DNA of 64,000 nucleotides from Candidatus Margulisiibacteriota bacterium (GTDB taxonomy: Bacteria; Margulisbacteria; Riflemargulisbacteria; GWF2-35-9). The stretch lies in assembly GCA_028715625.1 (NCBI GenBank), contig JAQURL010000001.1, positions 36,345-100,344 of the forward strand, read 5' to 3'. The stretch's first letter is position 1; every line of letters begins with the position of its first letter. Below, piece by piece: positions 10,036 through 29,331 of the stretch. The notes under the pieces are model-generated. The model saw only the letters and a list, made by a program, of their open reading frames with translations. It was not told the origin of the DNA and did not search any database. Made by a program: the position numbers and the translations under genes.

Positions 10036-10057
10036 AATTCCATATTTATTTGCAAAT

Positions 10058-19782: not shown

Positions 19783-20334
19783 TTGAAAGGAGATATTAAT
19801 ATGGGTTTATTTGACATTTTTAAAGGATCGGAAGAAAAAACAGAAAACAATCAGATTTCGGAGGATTCCGGAAACACCATCAATGATGATATGCATAACA
19901 TCGCTAAAGATACGTTAACTGAAATTTTAGACCTGATGGGATTTTTTAATGTAGTAAAAATACTGAATTTTGATACAACTTTTGTATCGCTGGAAATCAA
20001 AGGAGATGATTTGGGCAGGATAATAGGCAAAGAAGGCAACACCTTATATGCTCTGCAATATTTATTAAAAAATATATTAAGTAAAAAATATAAACGTCCT
20101 GTTAACGTACAGTTAGATGCCAATAATTACAGGGAAAAAAGAACTAACTCTATAACCAATATGGCTCTTGAAGCCGCACAAAAAGCTATAGCTGAAAACA
20201 GAGAGATTTTGATGCCAGCCATGAACGCCTGGGAACGCAGGATAGTTCATACCACTCTGATGGAAAATGGTAAAGTCAAAACAGAAAGCATAGGCAGAGA
20301 ACAGGACAGAAAAGTTATTGTCTCTCCAAAATGA
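19783..20334 (+). CDS. jag: Jag/KhpB RNA-binding protein (KH + R3H)
   Basis: Position after yidC. C-terminal R3H-like region (RRIVHTTL...). Confidence 0.7.
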   Translation: MKGDINMGLFDIFKGSEEKTENNQISEDSGNTINDDMHNIAKDTLTEILDLMGFFNVVKILNFDTTFVSLEIKGDDLGRIIGKEGNTLYALQYLLKNILSKKYKRPVNVQLDANNYREKRTNSITNMALEAAQKAIAENREILMPAMNAWERRIVHTTLMENGKVKTESIGREQDRKVIVSPK

Positions 20335-21716
20335 CCCTGGCTCCTTTTGCTGACACTATAGCGGCTATTTCCACACCGTTGGGGATTGGGGGAATAGCTG
20401 TTATAAGGATCAGCGGTCCTGATACTGTAAAAATTGTTAAACAGGTTAGCTCCCTGAATAAACCTGTTCCTAATCAGATTCGTTTTACATCTTTTTTTAG
20501 TCCTGATAAAAATAAAATAGATGAAGGGCTGCTTTCATTTTTTAAAGGGCCTTTTTCTTTTACCGGCGAAGACATGGCTGAACTCAACTGCCATGGAGGG
20601 TATGTGGTTGCTCAAAAGCTTATAGATACGCTCCTTCGGCTAGGCGCCAGGCAGGCAGACAAAGGCGAGTTTACCATGCGGGCTTTTATTAACGGCAAAA
20701 TAGATCTGATGCAGGCCGAGTCGGTGATCGATTTAATTGAGGCCAAAACAGAAAAAGCTTCCGGCATTTTCGTCCATCAGCTGGAAGGCAGATTGTCCAA
20801 AAAAATTCAGACTATCCGCGAGCAGTTACTCAAACTTATAAGTCATCTTGAGGTTCATCTTGATTATCCTGAAGAAGAAGATTTAAAAAAACCCTCTGAC
20901 TATGCAAATATTATTAAGGACCTGGTCAGCCGAATAGACCACTTGTTAGCTACATATAACACCGGCCGGCTGCTCAAAGAGGGCATTTTAACGGTTATAG
21001 CAGGTGCGCCAAATGTCGGTAAATCCAGCCTTCTTAACGCGCTTTTAAAAGATAACCGGGCAATAGTAACTGATATTCCCGGGACAACCAGAGATACAAT
21101 CGAGGAATGGATGCAATTGGAAGGTATCCCCTTTAAATTTGTGGATACTGCCGGTTTGCGGAACAGCCAGAATAAAATAGAAATAATCGGTATGGGCAAA
21201 ACTAAAAAATTAATAAACAAGGCTGATCTGGTTTTATTGATGTTAGATGCCGGAAGAGATCTGAATAAAGATGACCAGGCCATTTTAAAAAAACTTGATC
21301 CTAAAAAAACCGTCGTTATTATCAACAAAATTGATCTTCCTAAAAATTGCTCGAAAAAAATTACCGAGCTCCCCTCCCTGAAATTTTTTTCTTCTAATAT
21401 TTATCAGTTATCGGTTAAAAAAAGAAAAGGGCTGACAGCTCTGGAAAAAGGCCTGGTCAAATTCGCTCAAAAAAATTTTCTGACAGCTAGCGAACAAAAG
21501 GACGCGATTATCAGTAATGACAGACAAAAAGAACAGCTCATCAGCGCTAAAAAAACTTTATCCTCGGCTTTGAAATCAATAAAAAAGGGCCTTTCCGAGG
21601 ACCTCTGGTTGATTGATCTCCGTCTGGCATTAAGCACCCTAGGCTCCATAATCGGTGAAGATATCAGCGAAGAAGTGCTAAATGATATTTTTTCCAGATT
21701 TTGCGTGGGAAAGTAA
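20331..21716 (+). CDS. mnmE: tRNA modification GTPase MnmE
   Basis: G-domain motifs GAPNVGKSSLLN, DTAG. C-terminal CxGK tetrapeptide (CVGK). Confidence 0.9.
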   Translation: MTLAPFADTIAAISTPLGIGGIAVIRISGPDTVKIVKQVSSLNKPVPNQIRFTSFFSPDKNKIDEGLLSFFKGPFSFTGEDMAELNCHGGYVVAQKLIDTLLRLGARQADKGEFTMRAFINGKIDLMQAESVIDLIEAKTEKASGIFVHQLEGRLSKKIQTIREQLLKLISHLEVHLDYPEEEDLKKPSDYANIIKDLVSRIDHLLATYNTGRLLKEGILTVIAGAPNVGKSSLLNALLKDNRAIVTDIPGTTRDTIEEWMQLEGIPFKFVDTAGLRNSQNKIEIIGMGKTKKLINKADLVLLMLDAGRDLNKDDQAILKKLDPKKTVVIINKIDLPKNCSKKITELPSLKFFSSNIYQLSVKKRKGLTALEKGLVKFAQKNFLTASEQKDAIISNDRQKEQLISAKKTLSSALKSIKKGLSEDLWLIDLRLALSTLGSIIGEDISEEVLNDIFSRFCVGK

Positions 21717-21720
21717 AAAA

Positions 21721-21876
21721 TGGCGGGCGCTTTGCGCCAAAATCCGAATGGAATGGGCCTAAACGGGCGCGGCTGGGGCACTCCGCGGGGCAGCCGCGCC
21801 CTCGAGTGACGACTACGACGATTTCAAGGTTTTCGGGTCAGCGTTGCTGACCTGTTGGCTCTCGGGGAGAGCCAAA
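21721..21876. other. GC-rich cluster of four consecutive hairpins directly downstream of mnmE
   Basis: ggcgc-ttt-gcgcc (21726-21738). gggcgcggctg/cagccgcgccc, an 11-bp stem (21765-21801). ggtcagc-gtt-gctgacc (21836-21852). ttggctctc-ggg-gagagccaa (21855-21875). Confidence 0.5.
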
Positions 21877-21922
21877 CCCTTGCGGCAAATTCTTTTGAAT
21901 TTCTTGAAGTCCTCAGTATACT
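21855..21922 (+). promoter_or_regulatory. Operator-like palindrome plus promoter (module copy 1): TTGGCTCTC-N3-GAGAGCCAA, then -35 TTGAAT / -10 TATACT
   Basis: Perfect 9-bp inverted repeat. -35 at 21895-21900, 16-nt spacer, -10 at 21917-21922. ATG at 21930 is only 7 nt past the -10 (near-leaderless). Confidence 0.45.
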
Positions 21923-21929
21923 AAAAGGT

Positions 21930-22142
21930 ATGACAAACCTCCCACAAGTTGTATCTAATATTCCCCCGTCCGTTCAATGGCTCATCGACACCATTTGTAA
22001 CGAAATCGAGCACGGCAAGAAACTCACCTACTGGAATATCGGCAAGCATATCAAGGAACATAATACCTTCAAAAAAGGATGTCAGAATTTAACAATCTCA
22101 GAAGAAAAGAAGCATACCAAAATCGATTTGAAAGATATCTAA
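21930..22142 (+). CDS. Small hypothetical protein (70 aa); the ORF-track start at 21855 lies inside the hairpin and is rejected
   Basis: ATG follows the duplicated promoter module. MTNLPQVVSNIPPSVQWLIDTI.... Confidence 0.4.
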   Translation: MTNLPQVVSNIPPSVQWLIDTICNEIEHGKKLTYWNIGKHIKEHNTFKKGCQNLTISEEKKHTKIDLKDI

Positions 22143-22279
22143 AAGAATTGAACAGCGAAAACAAATGGAAGTTGCTTGATGAGTTTTTTCAAAAGAACCT
22201 AGATCAAATCGATGTTTTAAATGAGCAGAAGATGAATGAAAGCATAAACAATTTACTTCAAGACATATATTCAAATTAG
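22079..22279 (+). CDS. Small hypothetical helical protein overlapping the previous ORF in another frame (possible frameshifted continuation)
   Basis: 66-aa ORF with non-low-complexity sequence. Overlaps 21930..22142 by 64 nt. Confidence 0.25.
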   Translation: MSEFNNLRRKEAYQNRFERYLKELNSENKWKLLDEFFQKNLDQIDVLNEQKMNESINNLLQDIYSN

Positions 22280-22297
22280 ATTGGCTGGTCAGTTGGC

Positions 22298-22361
22298 GCT
22301 CTAAGAGAGCCAAAACCTTGTGTAAATTCTTTTGATTTATTTGAGCTGGGAGTATAATCAA
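22298..22361 (+). promoter_or_regulatory. Operator-like palindrome plus promoter (module copy 2): TTGGCGCTCT-AA-GAGAGCCAA, then -35 TTGATT / -10 TATAAT
   Basis: About 80 bp, roughly 75% identical to copy 1 (gagagccaaaaccttgtgtaaattcttttgatttatttgag...agtataat). ATG at 22362 is 7 nt past the -10. Confidence 0.45.
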
Positions 22362-23003
22362 ATGAGAATGACAGGCATTAAATATGTAATTGAACATTAT
22401 CCAGCGGTAATTGCAATACTTGGCACTTTGTCTGGACTTGTTTCGGTGTTACTGGGTGCAATAATATCAGCAAATGGAAATAAGATAAAACAGAAAGAGT
22501 TACAGCTTACAGAACAACAATTTATCTCGGACAAAAAACATCAGATCTCAAAGGAAAAGTATCAGAAATTGTTTAAGGAAAGGATTGAGGTTTACAAACA
22601 AATATTTATTGAGCTTAAGAAACTAAGTAAAAACCTGCGTGTTGTAGGGAATGCCCTATATAGGGTTGATCAATTTGGTTGTGATAGAACCGAAGTAATC
22701 ACCACAGAAAAGGTTAACGTAAAGACTTTGCAAACCCTTTTCAAATTAATTGAGGATAATAGTTTTTTGATTTCAGAAAAAACCCTTGAGTTAGTTAAGG
22801 GTCTTGAAGATTTTTACTGGAAATACAGAGCTGAAACGGATTCTTTGTATGATGTAGGGGCAATTGGCCCTGATGATATTGATGATGCGATAGAAAGCGA
22901 TCATAAGAAATTTTATGAGGAACAGGTCAACAGAATAAAAGAGTTCTATATACAGATCGAACAAGAAATATCATCAATGAAAAAGGATATGGGGTTTAAC
23001 TGA
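22362..23003 (+). CDS. Hypothetical membrane-anchored coiled-coil protein
   Basis: N-terminal TM helix (AVIAILGTLSGLVSVLLGAIIS), then heptad-rich coiled coil. No known motif. Confidence 0.45.
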   Translation: MRMTGIKYVIEHYPAVIAILGTLSGLVSVLLGAIISANGNKIKQKELQLTEQQFISDKKHQISKEKYQKLFKERIEVYKQIFIELKKLSKNLRVVGNALYRVDQFGCDRTEVITTEKVNVKTLQTLFKLIEDNSFLISEKTLELVKGLEDFYWKYRAETDSLYDVGAIGPDDIDDAIESDHKKFYEEQVNRIKEFYIQIEQEISSMKKDMGFN

Positions 23004-23113
23004 TAACAACGGGTGCAATATTCGTTACAATCTATTATCAAGAGCAGTGTTCGAATTAAGCATTTACCTGCTGACACTTGAGTAATATTAGTTGAAGGAA
23101 TAAAGTATATAAT

Positions 23114-23497
23114 ATGGATGCAGCAATAATTAAAATATTTTTTTGCATCGCTTATATAAAGGGCCTTATGCCTTCGCCTATCGTTTTATTAGTACTATTA
23201 GGGCTTGTATTATTTTACCCTCTTCGAAACAATAAAAGAGTTCTATTTCGAATATTGACTTGGGCATTTTTTGTTCCACTATCGTTTAACTTAATGACTA
23301 TGTCTGCTGGACTAACCTATAATGAGACCGAAAGTAGACTTATATCGCTTATTGTTTCTTTAGTAGTAGGCGTCATATATATTGCGGCACCACTTTTAAT
23401 TAATAGACTACAAAAATTTAAGCTTAAATTTATTGTTATTGGCGTATTATTAATATTCATTTTGGTTATCCCTGTATTCATCAAGTATGTGTTTTAA
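23114..23497 (+). CDS. Hypothetical small integral membrane protein (3-4 TM)
   Basis: Hydrophobic segments throughout. Confidence 0.4.
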   Translation: MDAAIIKIFFCIAYIKGLMPSPIVLLVLLGLVLFYPLRNNKRVLFRILTWAFFVPLSFNLMTMSAGLTYNETESRLISLIVSLVVGVIYIAAPLLINRLQKFKLKFIVIGVLLIFILVIPVFIKYVF

Positions 23498-23500
23498 GGT

Positions 23501-23722
23501 TTAGCTAAGAAAATTTTCACATTTTTTTTTATAAATCTTAGCAAAATCCATCATTTCAATGACATCTAGACGACGTTCTCCAGATTCTATTTTAGAAATG
23601 TATGATTGTGGTTTATTTAACAAGAGGGCAACATCAATTTGCTTTAGATTAGCCTCACTTCTAGCTTGTTTAAGCCTATCAATAAGCTTTAAGTACTTTT
23701 CTTTATAAATTGTTTTAGCCAT
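23501..23722 (-). CDS. XRE-family helix-turn-helix transcriptional regulator (Cro/CI-type)
   Basis: HTH: [39 protein letters not shown]. Confidence 0.8.
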
Positions 23723-24002
23723 AAATAGTTTGAAACCCCGATAATTTTATGATATATTCCAAATCAGGATATACCATAATGGAATATTAACTCAATGCGC
23801 AAAATTTTGCTTTTCTTCAAAATGAAATTCGAGCCGATTTTTCGTGACGTAGCTAAAAACTTAGACAGGAGCAAGGTGAGATAGTGGGCTGGCTTGCCGA
23901 GTCGAAGCTTTGCGACAACTATCTTTTACTTGTCCGCCTTCACTATGTTTCGGCGTGACAGTCTTCGCTAATCTCCTCGACTTCTCGTCGCTAAGCGAAG
24001 AC

Positions 24003-24091
24003 TGGCGGAGAGAGAGGGATTCGAACCCTCGATACCTTGCGGTAAACCACCTTTCCAGAGTGGCGCCATAGACCAACTAGGCGATCTCTCC
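24003..24091 (-). tRNA. tRNA-Ser (anticodon GGA)
   Basis: Reverse complement GGAGAGATCGCCTAGTTGGTCTATGGCGCCACTCTGGAAAGGTGG...GAGGGTTCGAATCCCTCTCTCTCCGCCA: long variable arm, anticodon loop CTGGAAA, encoded CCA. Confidence 0.8.
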
Positions 24092-24145
24092 TTAATCGAA
24101 TAAAGGCAATTATATCAACGAATACTTCTATTTGCTATAATATTT

Positions 24146-24871
24146 TTGCCACTTGGACAGAAAATACCTTGGCAAATAAACAACCTGTTCAAAATTAACA
24201 ACAGCATGCTAAAATTAGCACGGATTATGAAATTTAACATCTTTGATTTTTTACTACCCAGAGAAACCAAATTTTTTCATTACATGCTGGACCACGCGAA
24301 CTGCTTTGCAGAAGCATCAGTGCTTTTCAGAGACCTGTTAGCTAATCTGGAAACTATGAAAGAAGACGAAAAAAAATTGCTGCTTTTATCAATTAAAGAA
24401 TGCGAAAGCCGCGGGGATTCCATAGAAAAGAAAATGATCGATGAACTGAATCAGACTTTCATCACCCCGATCGATCGGGAAGATATTCACACTCTTGCTA
24501 TTAAACTCGACAGAGCTATTGATATTTTGAACAATCTTGCTAAAAAAATAGATATTTATAAAATCAATAAAGTCCCAAGTAATGCAAACAAATTCGCTGA
24601 TATTATTATTGCAATCGGACAATTAATGGTTTTACTCATCAAAGAACTGGAAAACAAAAGAAATGTCGAACAGATACAGGTAAAAATGCACTTTCTGGAA
24701 AATGAAGCTGACGACCTGTTTCATACTTCCATAGCAGAGTTGTTTAGCCTGAAACATGCACCAATTGATATTATCCGTTACAAAGAATTATATGAACATC
24801 TTGAGTCTATTGTGGACGCGGTAGACTATGTAGGCAAAATTATTCGCGGCATTAAAGTAAAACAAGCTTAA
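24146..24871 (+). CDS. DUF47-family (PhoU-like) phosphate-transport regulator (true start probably 24206-24227)
   Basis: Helical PhoU-like protein directly upstream of a PiT transporter (conserved pairing). Confidence 0.65.
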   Translation: MPLGQKIPWQINNLFKINNSMLKLARIMKFNIFDFLLPRETKFFHYMLDHANCFAEASVLFRDLLANLETMKEDEKKLLLLSIKECESRGDSIEKKMIDELNQTFITPIDREDIHTLAIKLDRAIDILNNLAKKIDIYKINKVPSNANKFADIIIAIGQLMVLLIKELENKRNVEQIQVKMHFLENEADDLFHTSIAELFSLKHAPIDIIRYKELYEHLESIVDAVDYVGKIIRGIKVKQA

Positions 24872-24903
24872 CAGATTGTTAAGTGAAAAATGTTAGGTGT
24901 TAA

Positions 24904-25893
24904 ATGTTGACTCTCGTTATTATTATTGTCGTTTTCGCTTTGATTTTCGATTTCATTAACGGTTTTCATGATGCCGCTAATGCAATTTCAACAATTGTCG
25001 CTTCCAAAACTTTAACACCCTTACAAGCTGTCTTTCTGGCTGGTATCTCAAACTTTATCGGTTATTTCACTTTCGGTACCGCTGTAGCAAAAATGGTGGG
25101 AAAAGGTGTGGTAAATATTGATTTCATAACCTTACACATAATATTGGCAACTATTGTCGGGGCAATTATCTGGAACCTGATTACCTGGTTTTTTGGTATA
25201 CCCACATCCAGCAGCCACGCTTTGATAGGAGCCTTGATAGGCGCAGGGATAGCTTCCGCTGGGATCCAGGTTATAATTGTCAGCGGGCTAATGAAGATCT
25301 TTCTATTTATTTTTATAGCACCTTTATTGGGAATGCTCGGTTCAATTGTTTTTACCATAATTATTATTCGATTAGCAAAAAAGTTAAAACCACAAAAAGC
25401 TACAAAAATATTTAAAAGATTGCAACCGATAGCTACAACATTTTATAGTATCGGGCACGGCACCAATGATGCGCAAAAAACTATGGGTATAATAGCTTTA
25501 ACTTTGTATACCTCTGGAATAAATAAATCTTTCATAATAAATGATTGGGTGGTGTTGGCTTGTTATAGTGCAATCTCTATGGGAACTCTGTTCGGAGGTT
25601 GGAGAATTGTTAAAACCATGGGAACAAATATAATAAAAATCCGCCAGATGGAAGGCTTTTGTGCCGATACAGCCGCTGCTTTTGTTTTGTTAGGTACAGC
25701 GCATGCGGGAATACCGGTAAGTACAACCCATGTTATTGCCGGTTCAATTATGGGTGTTGGAACTGTTGAACATGTGAATAATGTACGCTGGATCACAGCC
25801 AGACAAATAATATGGGCCTGGTTGATTACAATTCCAATTGCGGCTCTTTTTTCCAGCATCACCTATTTTCTGTTTTCCTTTTTTATTCAGTAG
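24904..25893 (+). CDS. pit: Inorganic phosphate transporter, PiT family
   Basis: GFHDAANAISTIVAS motif. Repeated PHO4 halves. Multi-TM. Confidence 0.85.
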   Translation: MLTLVIIIVVFALIFDFINGFHDAANAISTIVASKTLTPLQAVFLAGISNFIGYFTFGTAVAKMVGKGVVNIDFITLHIILATIVGAIIWNLITWFFGIPTSSSHALIGALIGAGIASAGIQVIIVSGLMKIFLFIFIAPLLGMLGSIVFTIIIIRLAKKLKPQKATKIFKRLQPIATTFYSIGHGTNDAQKTMGIIALTLYTSGINKSFIINDWVVLACYSAISMGTLFGGWRIVKTMGTNIIKIRQMEGFCADTAAAFVLLGTAHAGIPVSTTHVIAGSIMGVGTVEHVNNVRWITARQIIWAWLITIPIAALFSSITYFLFSFFIQ

Positions 25894-25897
25894 TGTC

Positions 25898-26356
25898 ATG
25901 AATATCCTGATTATTTACAAATCTGTTCATCATAAAAATACTGAAAAACTTGCACAGGTTCTTGCCGAACAACTGAAAGCCGACCTAAAACAACCGCAAG
26001 AAGTGAAAGCGGAACAGCTAAGTTCTTACGATATTATAGGGTTCGGTTCTGGGGTCTTTTTCAGCCAATTGCATCAAGACCTTTTAAAATTGGTTAAATA
26101 TCTGCCTGAATTAAACAAAAAAGTGTTCATATTTTCGACCCGAGGAACTGTTGTTGATTTTTTTTATCACTCCTCTCTAAAAAGTCTATTAAGAAACAAA
26201 GGCGCAGAACTTGTCGGGGAATTTTCGTGTAGAGGATATGATACATTTGGATTATGGAAATTTTTCGGTGGAATTGCCAAGGGTCACCCTGATACAAAAG
26301 ATATTAAATTAGCCATTAATTTCGCTGAAACATTAAAAAGTAAATTAAAAGTTTAA
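25898..26356 (+). CDS. Flavodoxin-like protein
   Basis: MNILIIYKSVHHKNTEKLAQVLA... flavodoxin fold (FMN-binding loop T/S-x-T...). Start moved to the internal ATG at 25898. Confidence 0.55.
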   Translation: MNILIIYKSVHHKNTEKLAQVLAEQLKADLKQPQEVKAEQLSSYDIIGFGSGVFFSQLHQDLLKLVKYLPELNKKVFIFSTRGTVVDFFYHSSLKSLLRNKGAELVGEFSCRGYDTFGLWKFFGGIAKGHPDTKDIKLAINFAETLKSKLKV

Positions 26357-26423
26357 AAATTCTTTTGATAATGTAAAATTCTAGGTTATGATTATAGGCA
26401 TAACTGATCACCCGGTATAAAAA

Positions 26424-27704
26424 ATGATTATAAAAAAAATCAGGATAAAAAATTATAAATCTATTTATAATTCAGGCCTTATCGAAGTTGGGGCATTAAA
26501 CTGTTTAATAGGCAAGAATAACTCAGGCAAATCAGCGTTCCTGGAAGCCATACATAAAATTAATCCTTATTTACCATCCTCTTCAGCCAGCCTTTATGAT
26601 ATTCTTGACGCCCCTAAAAACAAAACAGATTTTGTTAATGAATCCACAGTTATTGTTGAGGCGGAATTCGAACTCTCCAAGGAAGAAACTGAAATTATTT
26701 ACCTGAAATTCGGAAATCATTGCTTAAAATCAAACCTAATAAAAATTACTAAAAACTACAGCAATCAGTTTGTTTGGGATTTTGAGGTTGATGAGAACGT
26801 TTATATCAATCATATTATTTTTAAACGTCAATTACCTGTAGAATTTGGCAACCTGCTCAAAGATATCGCTACTATTGAAGAATGCCTGACAGAGGCCAGA
26901 AAATTCGAGAACCCGCCTAAAACAGTTACATCCTTTATTAATCAACTGGAAATTCTGCAACTCCGGTCTATGAAAGAAGAAATAATAGATGGATATCTTT
27001 CCTCTTTCCTGCCTAAAATTCATTATTTAAAAACCATACCTGATTTTAATAATAATCTTTCTCTTAAATACATTAATAAAGATCTTTATAGCGATATGAA
27101 CAAGGAGAGCGTCAATCCGTCGACCGCTTTTTGTAAGCTTATAAATGCTGATATTGATGAATTAATTTTCGGAGATGCTACAGAGGTGAAACTAAAGCTG
27201 GAACAAATGGCCGACCAGATTAATAATGAGCTGTTTCATTTATTCCCCGATTTCAAATCATACAGACTTCGCTTTGATAACAAGTACATTGTTGTTGATA
27301 ACAACATAGTAGACTCAATGTTTAAAATTTTTGTAATTGATACATCTAATAATGTTGAAATCCCTATAGAAAAATTCAGCAGTTCGTTTGTCTATATCCT
27401 ATCTTTTATAAGTACTTTACAGTTCTTTAAATTTAAAAGTAAAAACACAATAGTCCTAACAGAAAATCCCGCGCTTATTTTGCACCCTGAAAATCAAAAA
27501 ATTTTCAGAGAAATAATGGAAACAAAAACATCCGAGCAATTCCAGATTTTTTATACCACCCATTCTCCCTTTATGCTTAATAAAAATTCTAAAAATATCT
27601 ATGCTGTTTATCATTCCGCCCAAGATGGAACAACGGTTACCCAAAACGTTGATAAGAAAAATGATGACGGAACGTTAAGGTTGCTGGATTTTGCTGAGAT
27701 TTAA
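26424..27704 (+). CDS. Orphan AAA_21/ABC-type ATPase of the OLD/abortive-infection ATPase family (no Toprim or other nuclease domain)
   Basis: Walker A GKNNSGKSAFLEAI. C-terminal IVLTENPALILHP (OLD-like Walker B/D-loop region with TENP replacing DEPE). H-loop TTHSPFML. Confidence 0.6.
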   Translation: MIIKKIRIKNYKSIYNSGLIEVGALNCLIGKNNSGKSAFLEAIHKINPYLPSSSASLYDILDAPKNKTDFVNESTVIVEAEFELSKEETEIIYLKFGNHCLKSNLIKITKNYSNQFVWDFEVDENVYINHIIFKRQLPVEFGNLLKDIATIEECLTEARKFENPPKTVTSFINQLEILQLRSMKEEIIDGYLSSFLPKIHYLKTIPDFNNNLSLKYINKDLYSDMNKESVNPSTAFCKLINADIDELIFGDATEVKLKLEQMADQINNELFHLFPDFKSYRLRFDNKYIVVDNNIVDSMFKIFVIDTSNNVEIPIEKFSSSFVYILSFISTLQFFKFKSKNTIVLTENPALILHPENQKIFREIMETKTSEQFQIFYTTHSPFMLNKNSKNIYAVYHSAQDGTTVTQNVDKKNDDGTLRLLDFAEI

Positions 27705-27719
27705 AAATCTTGAGGTGTT

Positions 27720-28145
27720 TTAGTTTTTAAATATTCTTCTCAAAACTACGTAAAAAGTTTCTTTTCTGAACGGTTTGACAATATAATAATGTGCACCCAT
27801 CTGCATTGCCTGTATCACTCTGTTCTTGTCTCCAAGAGCTGAAACCATTACTATCTTTGTTTTTGGCTTCATTTTCACCAATTCTGGCAAAACGGCAAGC
27901 CCGTCTTTCTTGGGCATAGTTATATCAAGGGTAATCAGGTCCACATCTTCTGTTATTTTATTCAAAACATCAATAATTTCCTCACCATTGCTGGCTGAAC
28001 CTAAAATATTAAACCCGAAATCACTCAATGTTCGGCTGACTATCTTAACCATAGCCATGGAATCATCTACAATAACGGCAGTTAAGGGTTGACCATTTTC
28101 CTTGGTCCCAATATATTGTATTTCATCGTTAGTATTGATTAACAT
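27720..28145 (-). CDS. CheY-like single-domain response regulator
   Basis: Receiver motifs DDS..., LITLDITMPKKDG, KIVMVSALG. Confidence 0.8.
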   Translation of the reverse strand: MLINTNDEIQYIGTKENGQPLTAVIVDDSMAMVKIVSRTLSDFGFNILGSASNGEEIIDVLNKITEDVDLITLDITMPKKDGLAVLPELVKMKPKTKIVMVSALGDKNRVIQAMQMGAHYYIVKPFRKETFYVVLRRIFKN

Positions 28146-28307
28146 CGTTTCCCCTCTGTTTAGAATATATATTTTTTATAGGTTAACATTAAATTTCATA
28201 TTTTGTCTACATTCTGGAGCATTAAAATTCTTAAAAATTTGATATATTAAAATTTAATAAAGTATGTGCTATGATTAGGTAAATTTCGATAAAATTCATA
28301 AAATAAA

Positions 28308-28904
28308 ATGAAAAAAATATTATTCCTGCTTTTTTTAATTGTCCTATCCTCATCCTTTGGTTTCGTGCATCCCAGACAAGTTAAAATAAAAACCCTTGCA
28401 GAGATGCAAAAAGAACAAATGAATAAACGTATTTTAAGTTCCTATTCTGTCTTTGCCTTATCCGCCGGCAACCTGTTTTATCCGGGCTTTTCCATACAGG
28501 AAGGATTTTATAGCCTTGAGTACGGCCTTATAACCAAAGATTTATTCAGTTATAAATTCAGTTTAGGAGCAGGTTCCAACAAGGATAGCGCCGGCAACAT
28601 TATGAAAACTTATCCGCTGGATTTTGACATTTTAGTCGGTTATGGGATTATGTCTCGAATTGATACTTATTTGGGAGCGGGAGCGGGCTATACAATAATT
28701 CAGGATTATATCAATAAACAGGGACTTAATTACCATTTTATCGGAGGTCTTAACTTTTCTCTTTCCCAACAGTCTTCTTTTTTTATTGAATACAAAAGAT
28801 ATTTTCTAAATATAGATGCTGTTGATTTAAATTCCGAATTACTGAAATTCGGGTTTACTTTTAAATTCTATCCTCAGGCTAATACAATAAATGGTGAAAA
28901 CTAG
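28308..28904 (+). CDS. Putative outer-membrane beta-barrel protein
   Basis: Signal peptide MKKILFLLFLIVLSSSFGF. Alternating hydrophobic beta-strand pattern with Gly/aromatic richness. Confidence 0.4.
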   Translation: MKKILFLLFLIVLSSSFGFVHPRQVKIKTLAEMQKEQMNKRILSSYSVFALSAGNLFYPGFSIQEGFYSLEYGLITKDLFSYKFSLGAGSNKDSAGNIMKTYPLDFDILVGYGIMSRIDTYLGAGAGYTIIQDYINKQGLNYHFIGGLNFSLSQQSSFFIEYKRYFLNIDAVDLNSELLKFGFTFKFYPQANTINGEN

Positions 28905-28959
28905 TTATTCATATCCTTATATGATATGATAAAATAAAATAAAAAGGGGTGGTGATTAA

Positions 28960-29331
28960 ATGGTTCTTGATTTAAATGTGTCCATGAGAGAGAAAAACAA
29001 TATACCGATTATAGACCTGGAGGGTGAGATTGACGTTTATACCTATCCAAAGTTAAGTGATGCCTTGAAAATAATTTTTGAGAAATATCCAAGCACTAAA
29101 GATTTGATAATTAACCTGGGGAATGTTCGTTATATAGACAGTACCGGGTTGGGCGTAATTGCCAATGGGGCCAGTCAAATCTCAAAAATATCCAACGGTT
29201 ATGTTACTATCATCAATGCAACCCCGCAAATACGAAAAATATTTGATGTGTCAGGTCTGATATCGACGAACTTTAATCTTTATGACAATGAAGATACAGC
29301 TCTAAATCAAATCAACAGCAAGAACAGTTAA
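28960..29331 (+). CDS. STAS-domain anti-sigma-factor antagonist (SpoIIAA/RsbV-like)
   Basis: YIDSTGLGVIANG phosphorylatable Ser/Thr region. Confidence 0.8.
   Translation: MVLDLNVSMREKNNIPIIDLEGEIDVYTYPKLSDALKIIFEKYPSTKDLIINLGNVRYIDSTGLGVIANGASQISKISNGYVTIINATPQIRKIFDVSGLISTNFNLYDNEDTALNQINSKNS

Follow-up and report, generated by a model that had tools for sequence, protein, structure and literature searches.

Small membrane effectors of abortive infection (Abi) include RexB of phage lambda and the transmembrane (TM) effectors of CBASS and Pycsar. Genes embedded in the core loci of bacteriophage exclusion (BREX) systems are regarded as auxiliary or backup effectors (PMC12839542), examples being BrxU/GmrSD, PD-(D/E)XK, HEPN and OLD-ABC modules (PMC12839542, PMC8565348), and the BREX survey of 2026 in Nucleic Acids Research (NAR) deals with nucleases and OLD-ABC modules and nowhere uses the word 'transmembrane' (PMC12839542). 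Here we describe an islet of five open reading frames (ORFs A to E) located between mnmE and a tRNA-Ser(GGA) gene in a 64-kb stretch of a Candidatus Margulisbacteria metagenome-assembled genome (MAG); this whole stretch is called the window and all positions refer to it. An earlier note on the same DNA had proposed a toxin-antitoxin (TA), Abi or defence module, or else a prophage remnant. We tentatively read the locus as an accessory islet carrying an orphan, membrane-tethered and defence-associated protein, ORF C, probably co-expressed with ORF D and possibly regulated by the XRE-family protein ORF E through duplicated palindromes.

Reading frames were taken from a program-made list and the proteins were scanned against Pfam, NCBIfam, PADLOC and PHROG. 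As judged from sequence comparison, only two of the islet genes have recognisable relatives, namely ORF C, whose relatives are informative, and ORF E, a generic XRE protein. ORF C gave no Pfam, NCBIfam or PADLOC match, and its PHROG matches were weak and non-significant. A word-indexed search with ORF C returned one homologue (P0002, 45% identity over 202 aa), and an hmmsearch of 1.84 billion representatives recovered 60 family members at E <= 1e-3, 32 of which scored at E <= 1e-10. Nearly all members are about 200 aa long and match the profile from end to end. The family is rare, patchy and unannotated (about 60 clusters) and is absent from the two nearest genomes, the Marinamargulisbacteria MAGs L002 and L003.

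Hydropathy analysis of ORF C revealed a single TM helix at residues 15-33, followed at residues 56-76 by a helix with the family-wide motif K(K/R)HQISKEKYQxLFxxKIxxY, which is conserved in the family alignments. The AlphaFold model (pLDDT 94) comprises the N-terminal TM helix and a four-helix bundle with a beta hairpin; the earlier note had predicted a TM segment plus a coiled coil, and of these the TM segment was recovered and the coiled coil gave way to the predicted bundle. The protein has a Lys-rich side, which indicates that the bundle is probably cytoplasmic. Matches to known folds were weak and generic (Foldseek E at least 0.019, TM-score at most 0.37), the best being ligand-binding bundles of chemoreceptors and sensors, Hpt domains and OspC-like bundles. 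On a codon-usage log-odds model trained on 34 long window genes, referred to below as the codon score, ORF C reached 0.273, which is host-like. The 60 full-length family representatives, the pLDDT of 94 and the host-like codon score together indicate that ORF C is a real gene.

Besides the window, 17 distinct loci carrying a homologue of ORF C were recovered. At eight of them the homologue occupies the split-pglX junction of a type-1-like BREX operon, straight after the N-half of PglX (Eco57I/N6_Mtase), straight before the C-half, or both. The gene orders at these metagenome loci (the handles L016-L020 and L025-L029 denote metagenome loci) were as follows.

L018: PglX N-half, RhuM, homologue, PglX C-half.
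L020: BrxA, BrxB, BrxC, AAA_14, PglX N-half, homologue, a 435-aa protein, SIR2_2, PglX C-half, PglZ, BrxL.
L016: tail of the PglX N-half, AAA_14, homologue.
L026/27: BrxA, BrxB, BrxC, a 34-aa tail of the PglX N-half (in a 58-aa ORF), homologue, DUF87 ATPase, PglX C-half.
L017: homologue, a duplicate of the first 48 aa of the PglX C-half, DUF1016, PglX C-half, DUF1016, PglZ, BrxL.
L009 and L025: homologue, PglX C-half.
L028/29: PglX N-half, homologue, a protein that is DUF2971-like by eye.

Three further loci showed other defence contexts. In L015 the homologue lies with a type I restriction-modification (RM) operon followed by a serine recombinase; in L024 it adjoins an N6_N4 DNA methylase and in L010 a TIR_2 protein. 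The proposal of the earlier note that this is a candidate defence locus is thus upheld for ORF C alone, through the BREX, RM and TIR contexts of its homologues, and by association only.

The BREX variant seen in these loci has its pglX gene split at a fixed point, the N-half being the methylase and the C-half starting with M(P/A)TYIRLTDYKSSD. The junction holds variable cargo, namely RhuM, DUF1016, SIR2_2, or AAA_14 or DUF87 ATPases, and in L017 the first 48 codons of the PglX C-half recur as a duplicate flanking a DUF1016 gene. Both the ORF C family and its fixed address at the split-pglX junction appear to be undescribed. The family may represent an undescribed defence component of split-PglX BREX. 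It would serve the two PglX halves as membrane anchor or adaptor, or else act as a backup effector of the abortive kind, and would also travel as a portable single-gene module; the copy in the Margulisbacteria islet would then be one that stands alone under the control of an XRE protein. This more specific proposal we consider doubtful.

When BrxA, BrxB, BrxC, PglX N-half, PglX C-half, PglZ and BrxL of L020 were compared with the whole window by tblastn, only ORF C was matched. Neither a PglX remnant nor a second copy of ORF C was found flanking ORF C, ORFs A, B, D and E showed no similarity to the neighbours of the ORF C homologues, and no homologue of ORF C was found in phage and plasmid records or IMG/VR contigs. 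With no BREX, PglX or RM partner in the window, ORF C is an orphan copy of a defence-island gene.

To place the islet in its genomic setting, the window was compared with the nearest genomes of a GTDB-based collection, L002 and L003, whose MnmE proteins share 54% and 51% identity with that of the window. The features of the region are given below, with ORF A and ORF C corresponding to PHV30_00305 and PHV30_00310 of the NCBI annotation.

Start of the conserved block: rpmH-like, L34-like reading frame.
After the rpmH-like frame and upstream of mnmE: rnpA, yidD, yidC and jag, from Pfam matches.
20331-21716, plus strand: mnmE (Pfam TrmE_N, MMR_HSR1, MnmE_helical), last gene of the conserved block and left anchor of the variable interval.
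21726-21875, plus strand: GC-rich cluster of four hairpins, GC up to 69%, the last hairpin being palindrome 1.
21846-21935, plus strand: direct repeat copy 1, from local alignment.
21930-22142, plus strand: ORF A, 70 aa.
22071-22076, plus strand: A6 run within CAAAAAAGG, from three-frame translation.
22079-22279, plus strand: ORF B, 66 aa, overlapping ORF A by 64 nt.
22284-22373, plus strand: direct repeat copy 2, from local alignment.
22362 or 22368 to 23003, plus strand: ORF C, 213 aa (Logan gene call) or 211 aa from 22368 (NCBI).
23114-23497, plus strand: ORF D, 127 aa, multi-TM.
23501-23722, minus strand: ORF E, 73 aa, XRE-family helix-turn-helix (HTH) protein, convergent with ORF D.
23860-24002, minus strand: GC-rich structured spacer directly 3' of tRNA-Ser, fold z = -2.1.
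24003-24091, minus strand: tRNA-Ser(GGA), from ARAGORN and Rfam, its 3' end toward the islet.

The conserved rpmH to mnmE block ends at 21716, as the earlier note had it, on the strength of the Pfam matches and the L34-like frame, and the GC hairpins, ORFs A to E, the convergent XRE gene and the bounding tRNA-Ser all lie where that note had placed them. The window genes from 17005 through mnmE are collinear in L002 and in L003. Beyond mnmE, L002 carries tRNA-Ser(GGA) on the other strand, 190 bp past the gene, and the corresponding interval of L003 contains a PAS sensor gene in convergent orientation, pieces of the tRNA-Ser 3' end repeated in tandem, and a GIY-YIG gene, with tRNA-Ser(GGA) coming after them; synteny with L003 restarts only at the STAS gene at 28960. 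The tRNA-Ser(GGA) gene is the sole element of the variable interval in common with L002 and L003. Both relatives keep the anchors and differ in the content between them, so the interval is variable, and the accessory character proposed for it in the earlier note is borne out: the same genes were not found in either relative, and the Pfam, NCBIfam and PADLOC scans matched none of the islet proteins to a housekeeping family. The locus would then be a small lineage-specific accessory islet within a larger variable interval (21717-28959) around tRNA-Ser(GGA). Exact-protein look-ups of mnmE and of the PhoU-like gene, made for strain variants of the site, found no record. An assembled Logan contig (SRR22315506; L001, window 21171-24014) is identical to the window over that range. 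One of its ends lies inside mnmE and the other in tRNA-Ser, some 10 nt in from the 3' terminus, so that the islet is bracketed; strain heterogeneity with alternative junctions at the tRNA end could be the cause of these breaks.

The variable interval also holds an orphan AAA_15/OLD-family ABC ATPase at 26424-27704 (PADLOC AriA 3.7e-25, Old 3.7e-23). It has no Toprim or nuclease partner, and the gene that follows, for a response regulator, is read from the other strand. The presence of this ATPase within 21717-28959 lends mild support to a defence-island character of the region.

Comparison of the islet with itself revealed a direct repeat of about 90 nt, absent from the earlier note, whose two copies (21846-21935 and 22284-22373) lie 438 bp apart in front of ORFs A and C. 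The pair gave a local alignment score of 53 and was the sole pair scoring at least 30 among eight segments compared on both strands; no further copy of the module or of its palindrome occurs within the window. Each copy consists, in order, of a 21-bp palindrome TTGGC-N11-GCCAA, the sequence AAAYCCTTG..AAATTCTTTTGA, -35-like and -10-like hexamers and ATGACA. In copy 1 the palindrome TTGGCTCTC-GGG-GAGAGCCAA (21855-21875) is followed by TTGAAT (21895-21900), 16 nt, TATACT (21917-21922), 7 nt and the ATGACA that forms the start of ORF A; this copy was also a match in the promoter scan. In copy 2 the palindrome TTGGCGCTCT-AAG-AGAGCCAA (22293-22313) is followed by TTGATT (22332-22337), 15 nt, TATAAT (22353-22358) and ATGACA at 22368, which is the NCBI start of ORF C. 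From the palindrome centres to the presumed transcription starts, which lie downstream, the distance is about 62-64 bp.

Inspection of gene starts showed that 18 of the 42 window genes checked have no Shine-Dalgarno sequence, and a TATAAT-like hexamer was observed 6-9 nt ahead of the ATG at several genes (4854 on the minus strand, 16583, 35834, 21930 and 22368). The recurrence of a -10-like hexamer near an ATG that has no Shine-Dalgarno makes leaderless-type promoters plausible in this genome, and suggests that leaderless mRNAs may be common in it.

ORF A likewise has no Shine-Dalgarno sequence and a leaderless-type start, and ORF B has no usable ribosome-binding site. The codon scores of ORFs A and B (0.144 and 0.162) are intermediate and lie above those of 96% of spurious ORFs. 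Searches among 5.8 billion clustered proteins revealed no homologue of ORF A, B or D except their own records, and the three ORFs have no Pfam, NCBIfam or PADLOC family and no significant PHROG match; the best PADLOC match of ORF A, to PDC-S02 (E = 0.011), was not significant. The earlier note had asked whether a frameshift might join ORFs A and B. Three-frame translation showed that a -1 shift at CAAAAAAGG (22070-22078) fuses the two frames into a 116-aa product, and C AAA AAA G (22070-22077), which leads into frame B, lies in register, its first position mismatching the X XXY YYZ pattern. The join is thus mechanically possible, although the codon scores within the overlap favour frame A (0.267 versus -0.013 for frame B). 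The fusion product has neither a homologue nor a Pfam family. ORFs A and B could be a pseudogene, two genes or a case of recoding, as far as the reading frames tell. A YWxIGK motif in ORF A resembles the N-terminus of DUF1016 proteins (13-23 residues against the DUF1016 proteins of L017, pairwise E 0.004-0.006); the idea of a DUF1016/YhcG nuclease remnant was rejected, the resemblance being confined to a short motif with no DUF1016_N or YhcG_C Pfam match at E <= 10, so that the motif is no more than a faint lead. A decayed copy of ORF C in the DNA of A/B or D/E was likewise rejected after a negative six-frame hmmsearch.

ORF D has four to five hydrophobic segments by hydropathy, in agreement with the multi-TM protein predicted by the earlier note. 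Its codon score is low (0.050), with 13% of spurious ORFs scoring higher, and its coding status is uncertain. ORF E matches Pfam HTH_3 (E = 3.9e-10) and the XRE-like PDB entry 3f6w (2.4e-14), and its codon score (0.250) is like that of typical host genes. In PADLOC it obtained only weak, generic matches to HTH and RM Control_protein models, and against HipB/Y4mF-type antitoxin models it scored 21.5 bits, the cut-off being 71.65. It is the only islet ORF with a significant PHROG match, to phage repressors. ORFs D and E are convergent, with 3 nt between their stop codons.

Putting these elements together, ORF C would be transcribed from its own leaderless-type promoter, and ORF D would probably be co-transcribed with it. 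The two 21-bp palindromes are candidate operators; the protein likeliest to bind them is ORF E, which may in this way control both promoters. We infer regulation by ORF E, co-transcription of ORF D and anti-phage activity, which would make the islet a portable membrane-associated accessory defence module of an abortive-infection-like or 'backup' type.

The GC-rich DNA after mnmE contains the top GC peak of the whole window, within 21684-21901 (0.69 per 100 nt against a mean of 0.37), and folds into four consecutive GC hairpins (minimum free energy -87 kcal/mol, z = -2.7). A search of 21716-21900 against Rfam returned nothing at the gathering score and nothing at E <= 10; the spacer at 23860-24002 matched no Rfam family above threshold. 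A hairpin cluster of this kind was not seen after mnmE in L002 or L003. When the GC-rich segments of the mnmE side, the tRNA-Ser side, the inserts at tRNA-Gly and tRNA-Leu described below, L002 and L003 were compared, only the local 90-nt repeat was alike. An integron attC reading of the hairpins was rejected by eye, the 21-bp hairpin being too short and having no GTTRRRY core, with no IntI. Read on the minus strand, the first hairpin (21738-21726) is terminator-like, with a T-run (GGCGCAAAGCGCC CGCCATTTTT) after it, and could mark the end of a minus-strand transcript over the GC cluster, which would imply an unannotated antisense or non-coding RNA. Elsewhere in the window, the product of a small minus-strand ORF (10050-10246) has a signal peptide resembling that of a lipoprotein (…LMVSVMGC) and, after it, repeats rich in Ala and Pro (APAPAAAPAEQAAPAAAPA…); this ORF is the source of the GCTGGTGCT repeats and of a GC peak of 0.64.

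Other tRNA genes in the window carry inserts. Downstream of tRNA-Gly(GCC) (12175-12437) and tRNA-Leu(TAG) (16211-16493), GC-rich inserts of about 130-180 nt were observed on the 3' side, each insert closing with a second, directly repeated copy of the tRNA 3' end. For tRNA-Gly, 12175-12213 is repeated at 12344-12382 (39 nt including 19 nt of flank); for tRNA-Leu, 16211-16232 is repeated at 16412-16433 and the identity stops in the T-loop. Both inserts contain GCTTCG...ACTAGCTC and have no Rfam match; they look like att-type scars or miniature integrated elements. In L003 (10800-11460) the GIY-YIG gene, which adjoins the real tRNA-Ser(GGA), is surrounded by two or three tandem copies of a unit made up of a flank and the 3'-terminal 15 nt of that tRNA, and in L002 (9410-9588) a second copy of the first ~20 nt of tRNA-Ser lies 157 nt upstream of the tRNA gene. 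In this lineage, insertions seem to target tRNA genes repeatedly.

These duplicated 3' ends at tRNA-Gly, at tRNA-Leu and at the tRNA-Ser of L003, which flank short inserts and mark tRNA genes as insertion sites in this lineage, are among the points that favour the remnant of a prophage or integrative element at the tRNA-Ser 3' end; that end points into the islet, and ORF E matches phage repressor PHROGs. On the other hand, the islet itself gave no positive evidence of a prophage remnant. Among ORFs A to E, scanned within 21717-24002, no integrase or recombinase domain was found, which agrees with the statement of the earlier note that no integrase remains. Searches of 21700-24000 by blastn-short and Smith-Waterman revealed no duplicate of the tRNA-Ser 3' end, the only trace being TGGCGG (6 nt) at 21721. 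ORF C has no homologue in the phage, plasmid or viral-contig collections searched, XRE is the only significant PHROG match, and neither the interior GC (33-34%) nor the codon usage of C and E departs from that of the host. This origin is the least probable of those considered. Hardly less improbable is a type II TA or Abi pair, with ORF E as antitoxin or repressor of a small membrane toxin, either D or C plus D. The 73-aa HTH_3 protein ORF E with its weak HipB/Y4mF antitoxin and RM control-protein matches, the small and very hydrophobic ORF D and the accessory nature of the islet are what such a pair would have in its favour, but ORF E is convergent with D and shares no operon with it, so that the arrangement is not bicistronic, and no toxin, Abi or PADLOC model matched A, B, C or D. 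Moreover, no XRE or D-like neighbour occurs at any homologue locus of ORF C, the five genes are not conserved as a unit there, and the antitoxin-model scores fall far under their cut-offs (21.5 versus 71.65 bits). The XRE-controlled module of small membrane proteins put forward in the earlier note was accordingly not sustained. Lineage-specific envelope or regulatory genes unrelated to phage defence, with C and D under XRE control and a C bundle that resembles those of sensors and Hpt domains, are an improbable explanation. The best fold matches are indeed to sensor bundles, Hpt domains and OspC-like bundles, codon usage is host-like and some homologues have non-defence neighbours, as in L021 where a MocR-like (by eye) gene and a PNPOx-like gene adjoin the homologue; yet none of these fold matches is more than weak and generic, the homologue has a BREX, RM or TIR context at 11 of the 17 loci, and the family is very rare, patchy and absent from the two nearest genomes.

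The main rival, though itself rather unlikely, is that the islet is the decaying, non-functional remainder of what was once a defence island or mobile element. Of its genes C and E alone would be intact, with A/B a frameshifted pseudogene, D a chance ORF in T-rich DNA and the repeated module a scar of local duplication or insertion. This rival would account for the want of homologues of A, B and D among 5.8 billion proteins, for the out-of-frame overlap of A and B with an A6 run where frame B opens, for the missing ribosome-binding site of ORF B, for the low codon score of ORF D (0.050), for an ORF C that lacks the BREX or RM partners usual for its homologues, and for a site with no integrase or att repeat left. 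It fits poorly with the intact frames and fully host-like codon usage of C and E, with the hexamers and ATGACA retained in both copies of the module, and with ORFs A and B outscoring 96% of spurious ORFs; a 127-codon frame exactly filling the gap between C and E in DNA of 30% GC is also improbable by chance. The preferred reading, an accessory islet built around a defence-associated ORF C, has weaknesses of its own. A defence role of the islet is plausible by analogy with the homologue loci, and genomic association is the only kind of evidence behind it. Six of the 17 homologue loci have no recognisable defence neighbour, many of these contigs being only 1-4 kb long; no BREX, PglX, TIR, HEPN or related gene occurs within the 64-kb window, and the A-B-C-D-E arrangement was seen at none of the other loci. 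The ORF C fold is a generic helical bundle that bears no effector signature, the family alignments contain no invariant catalytic-looking residues, and ORFs A, B, C and D have no PADLOC, Pfam, NCBIfam or significant PHROG match. With respect to regulation, the promoter and terminator scan gave promoter-like site counts at chance level and so carries no weight by itself, the palindrome pattern, taken by itself, does not reach significance (two or more arose in 9 of 100 shuffles), and GGGAG at 22348 could act as a Shine-Dalgarno sequence for the ATG at 22362, a reading at odds with a -10 role for TATAAT. The synteny comparison also relied on distant relatives, at 51-54% MnmE identity. All these points weigh against the preferred reading and keep it tentative.

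The islet itself is ordinary for this genome, a small variable region beside a tRNA gene. Should ORF C turn out to serve BREX as a functional accessory, or to act by itself as a membrane effector, BREX, with its restriction mechanism still unresolved, would gain a membrane-linked element, and annotation pipelines would gain a new marker of defence islands. If the family is merely a frequent passenger, the consequences are small.

Compared with known systems, the locus resembles tRNA-linked genomic islets in lying directly 3' of a tRNA gene and in having an interval content that differs between relatives; unlike them, it shows no integrase and no att duplication at tRNA-Ser. The likeness to XRE or C-protein controllers of RM and defence operons consists of the 73-aa HTH_3 protein ORF E, with weak Control_protein and HTH matches, and of the palindromic candidate operators upstream of two promoter-like sites in the islet. 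Such controllers differ in their placement, since ORF E is convergent, being neither upstream of nor within its putative target operon; no such palindrome occurs upstream of its own gene, and no RM genes are present. ORF C shares with the small membrane effectors of Abi systems its membrane anchor, its family's encoding in defence islands and its want of enzymatic domains, whereas it has no sequence or fold similarity to them and no sensor or cyclase partner. With the auxiliary genes of BREX the resemblance is closer in position than in kind: ORF C has no nuclease or NTPase domain, is a four-helix bundle with a single TM segment and has no BREX locus here, but its homologues too are located within BREX operons, in close spacing or overlap with the core genes, and have as neighbours an embedded DUF1016/YhcG nuclease, SIR2_2, RhuM, and AAA_14 and DUF87 ATPases. 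As for split PglX (BrxX) of type-1 BREX, ORF C is not homologous to PglX and the window holds no PglX remnant; the PADLOC PglX model begins exactly at the C-half, and the junction of N-half and C-half is the most frequent address of the ORF C family.

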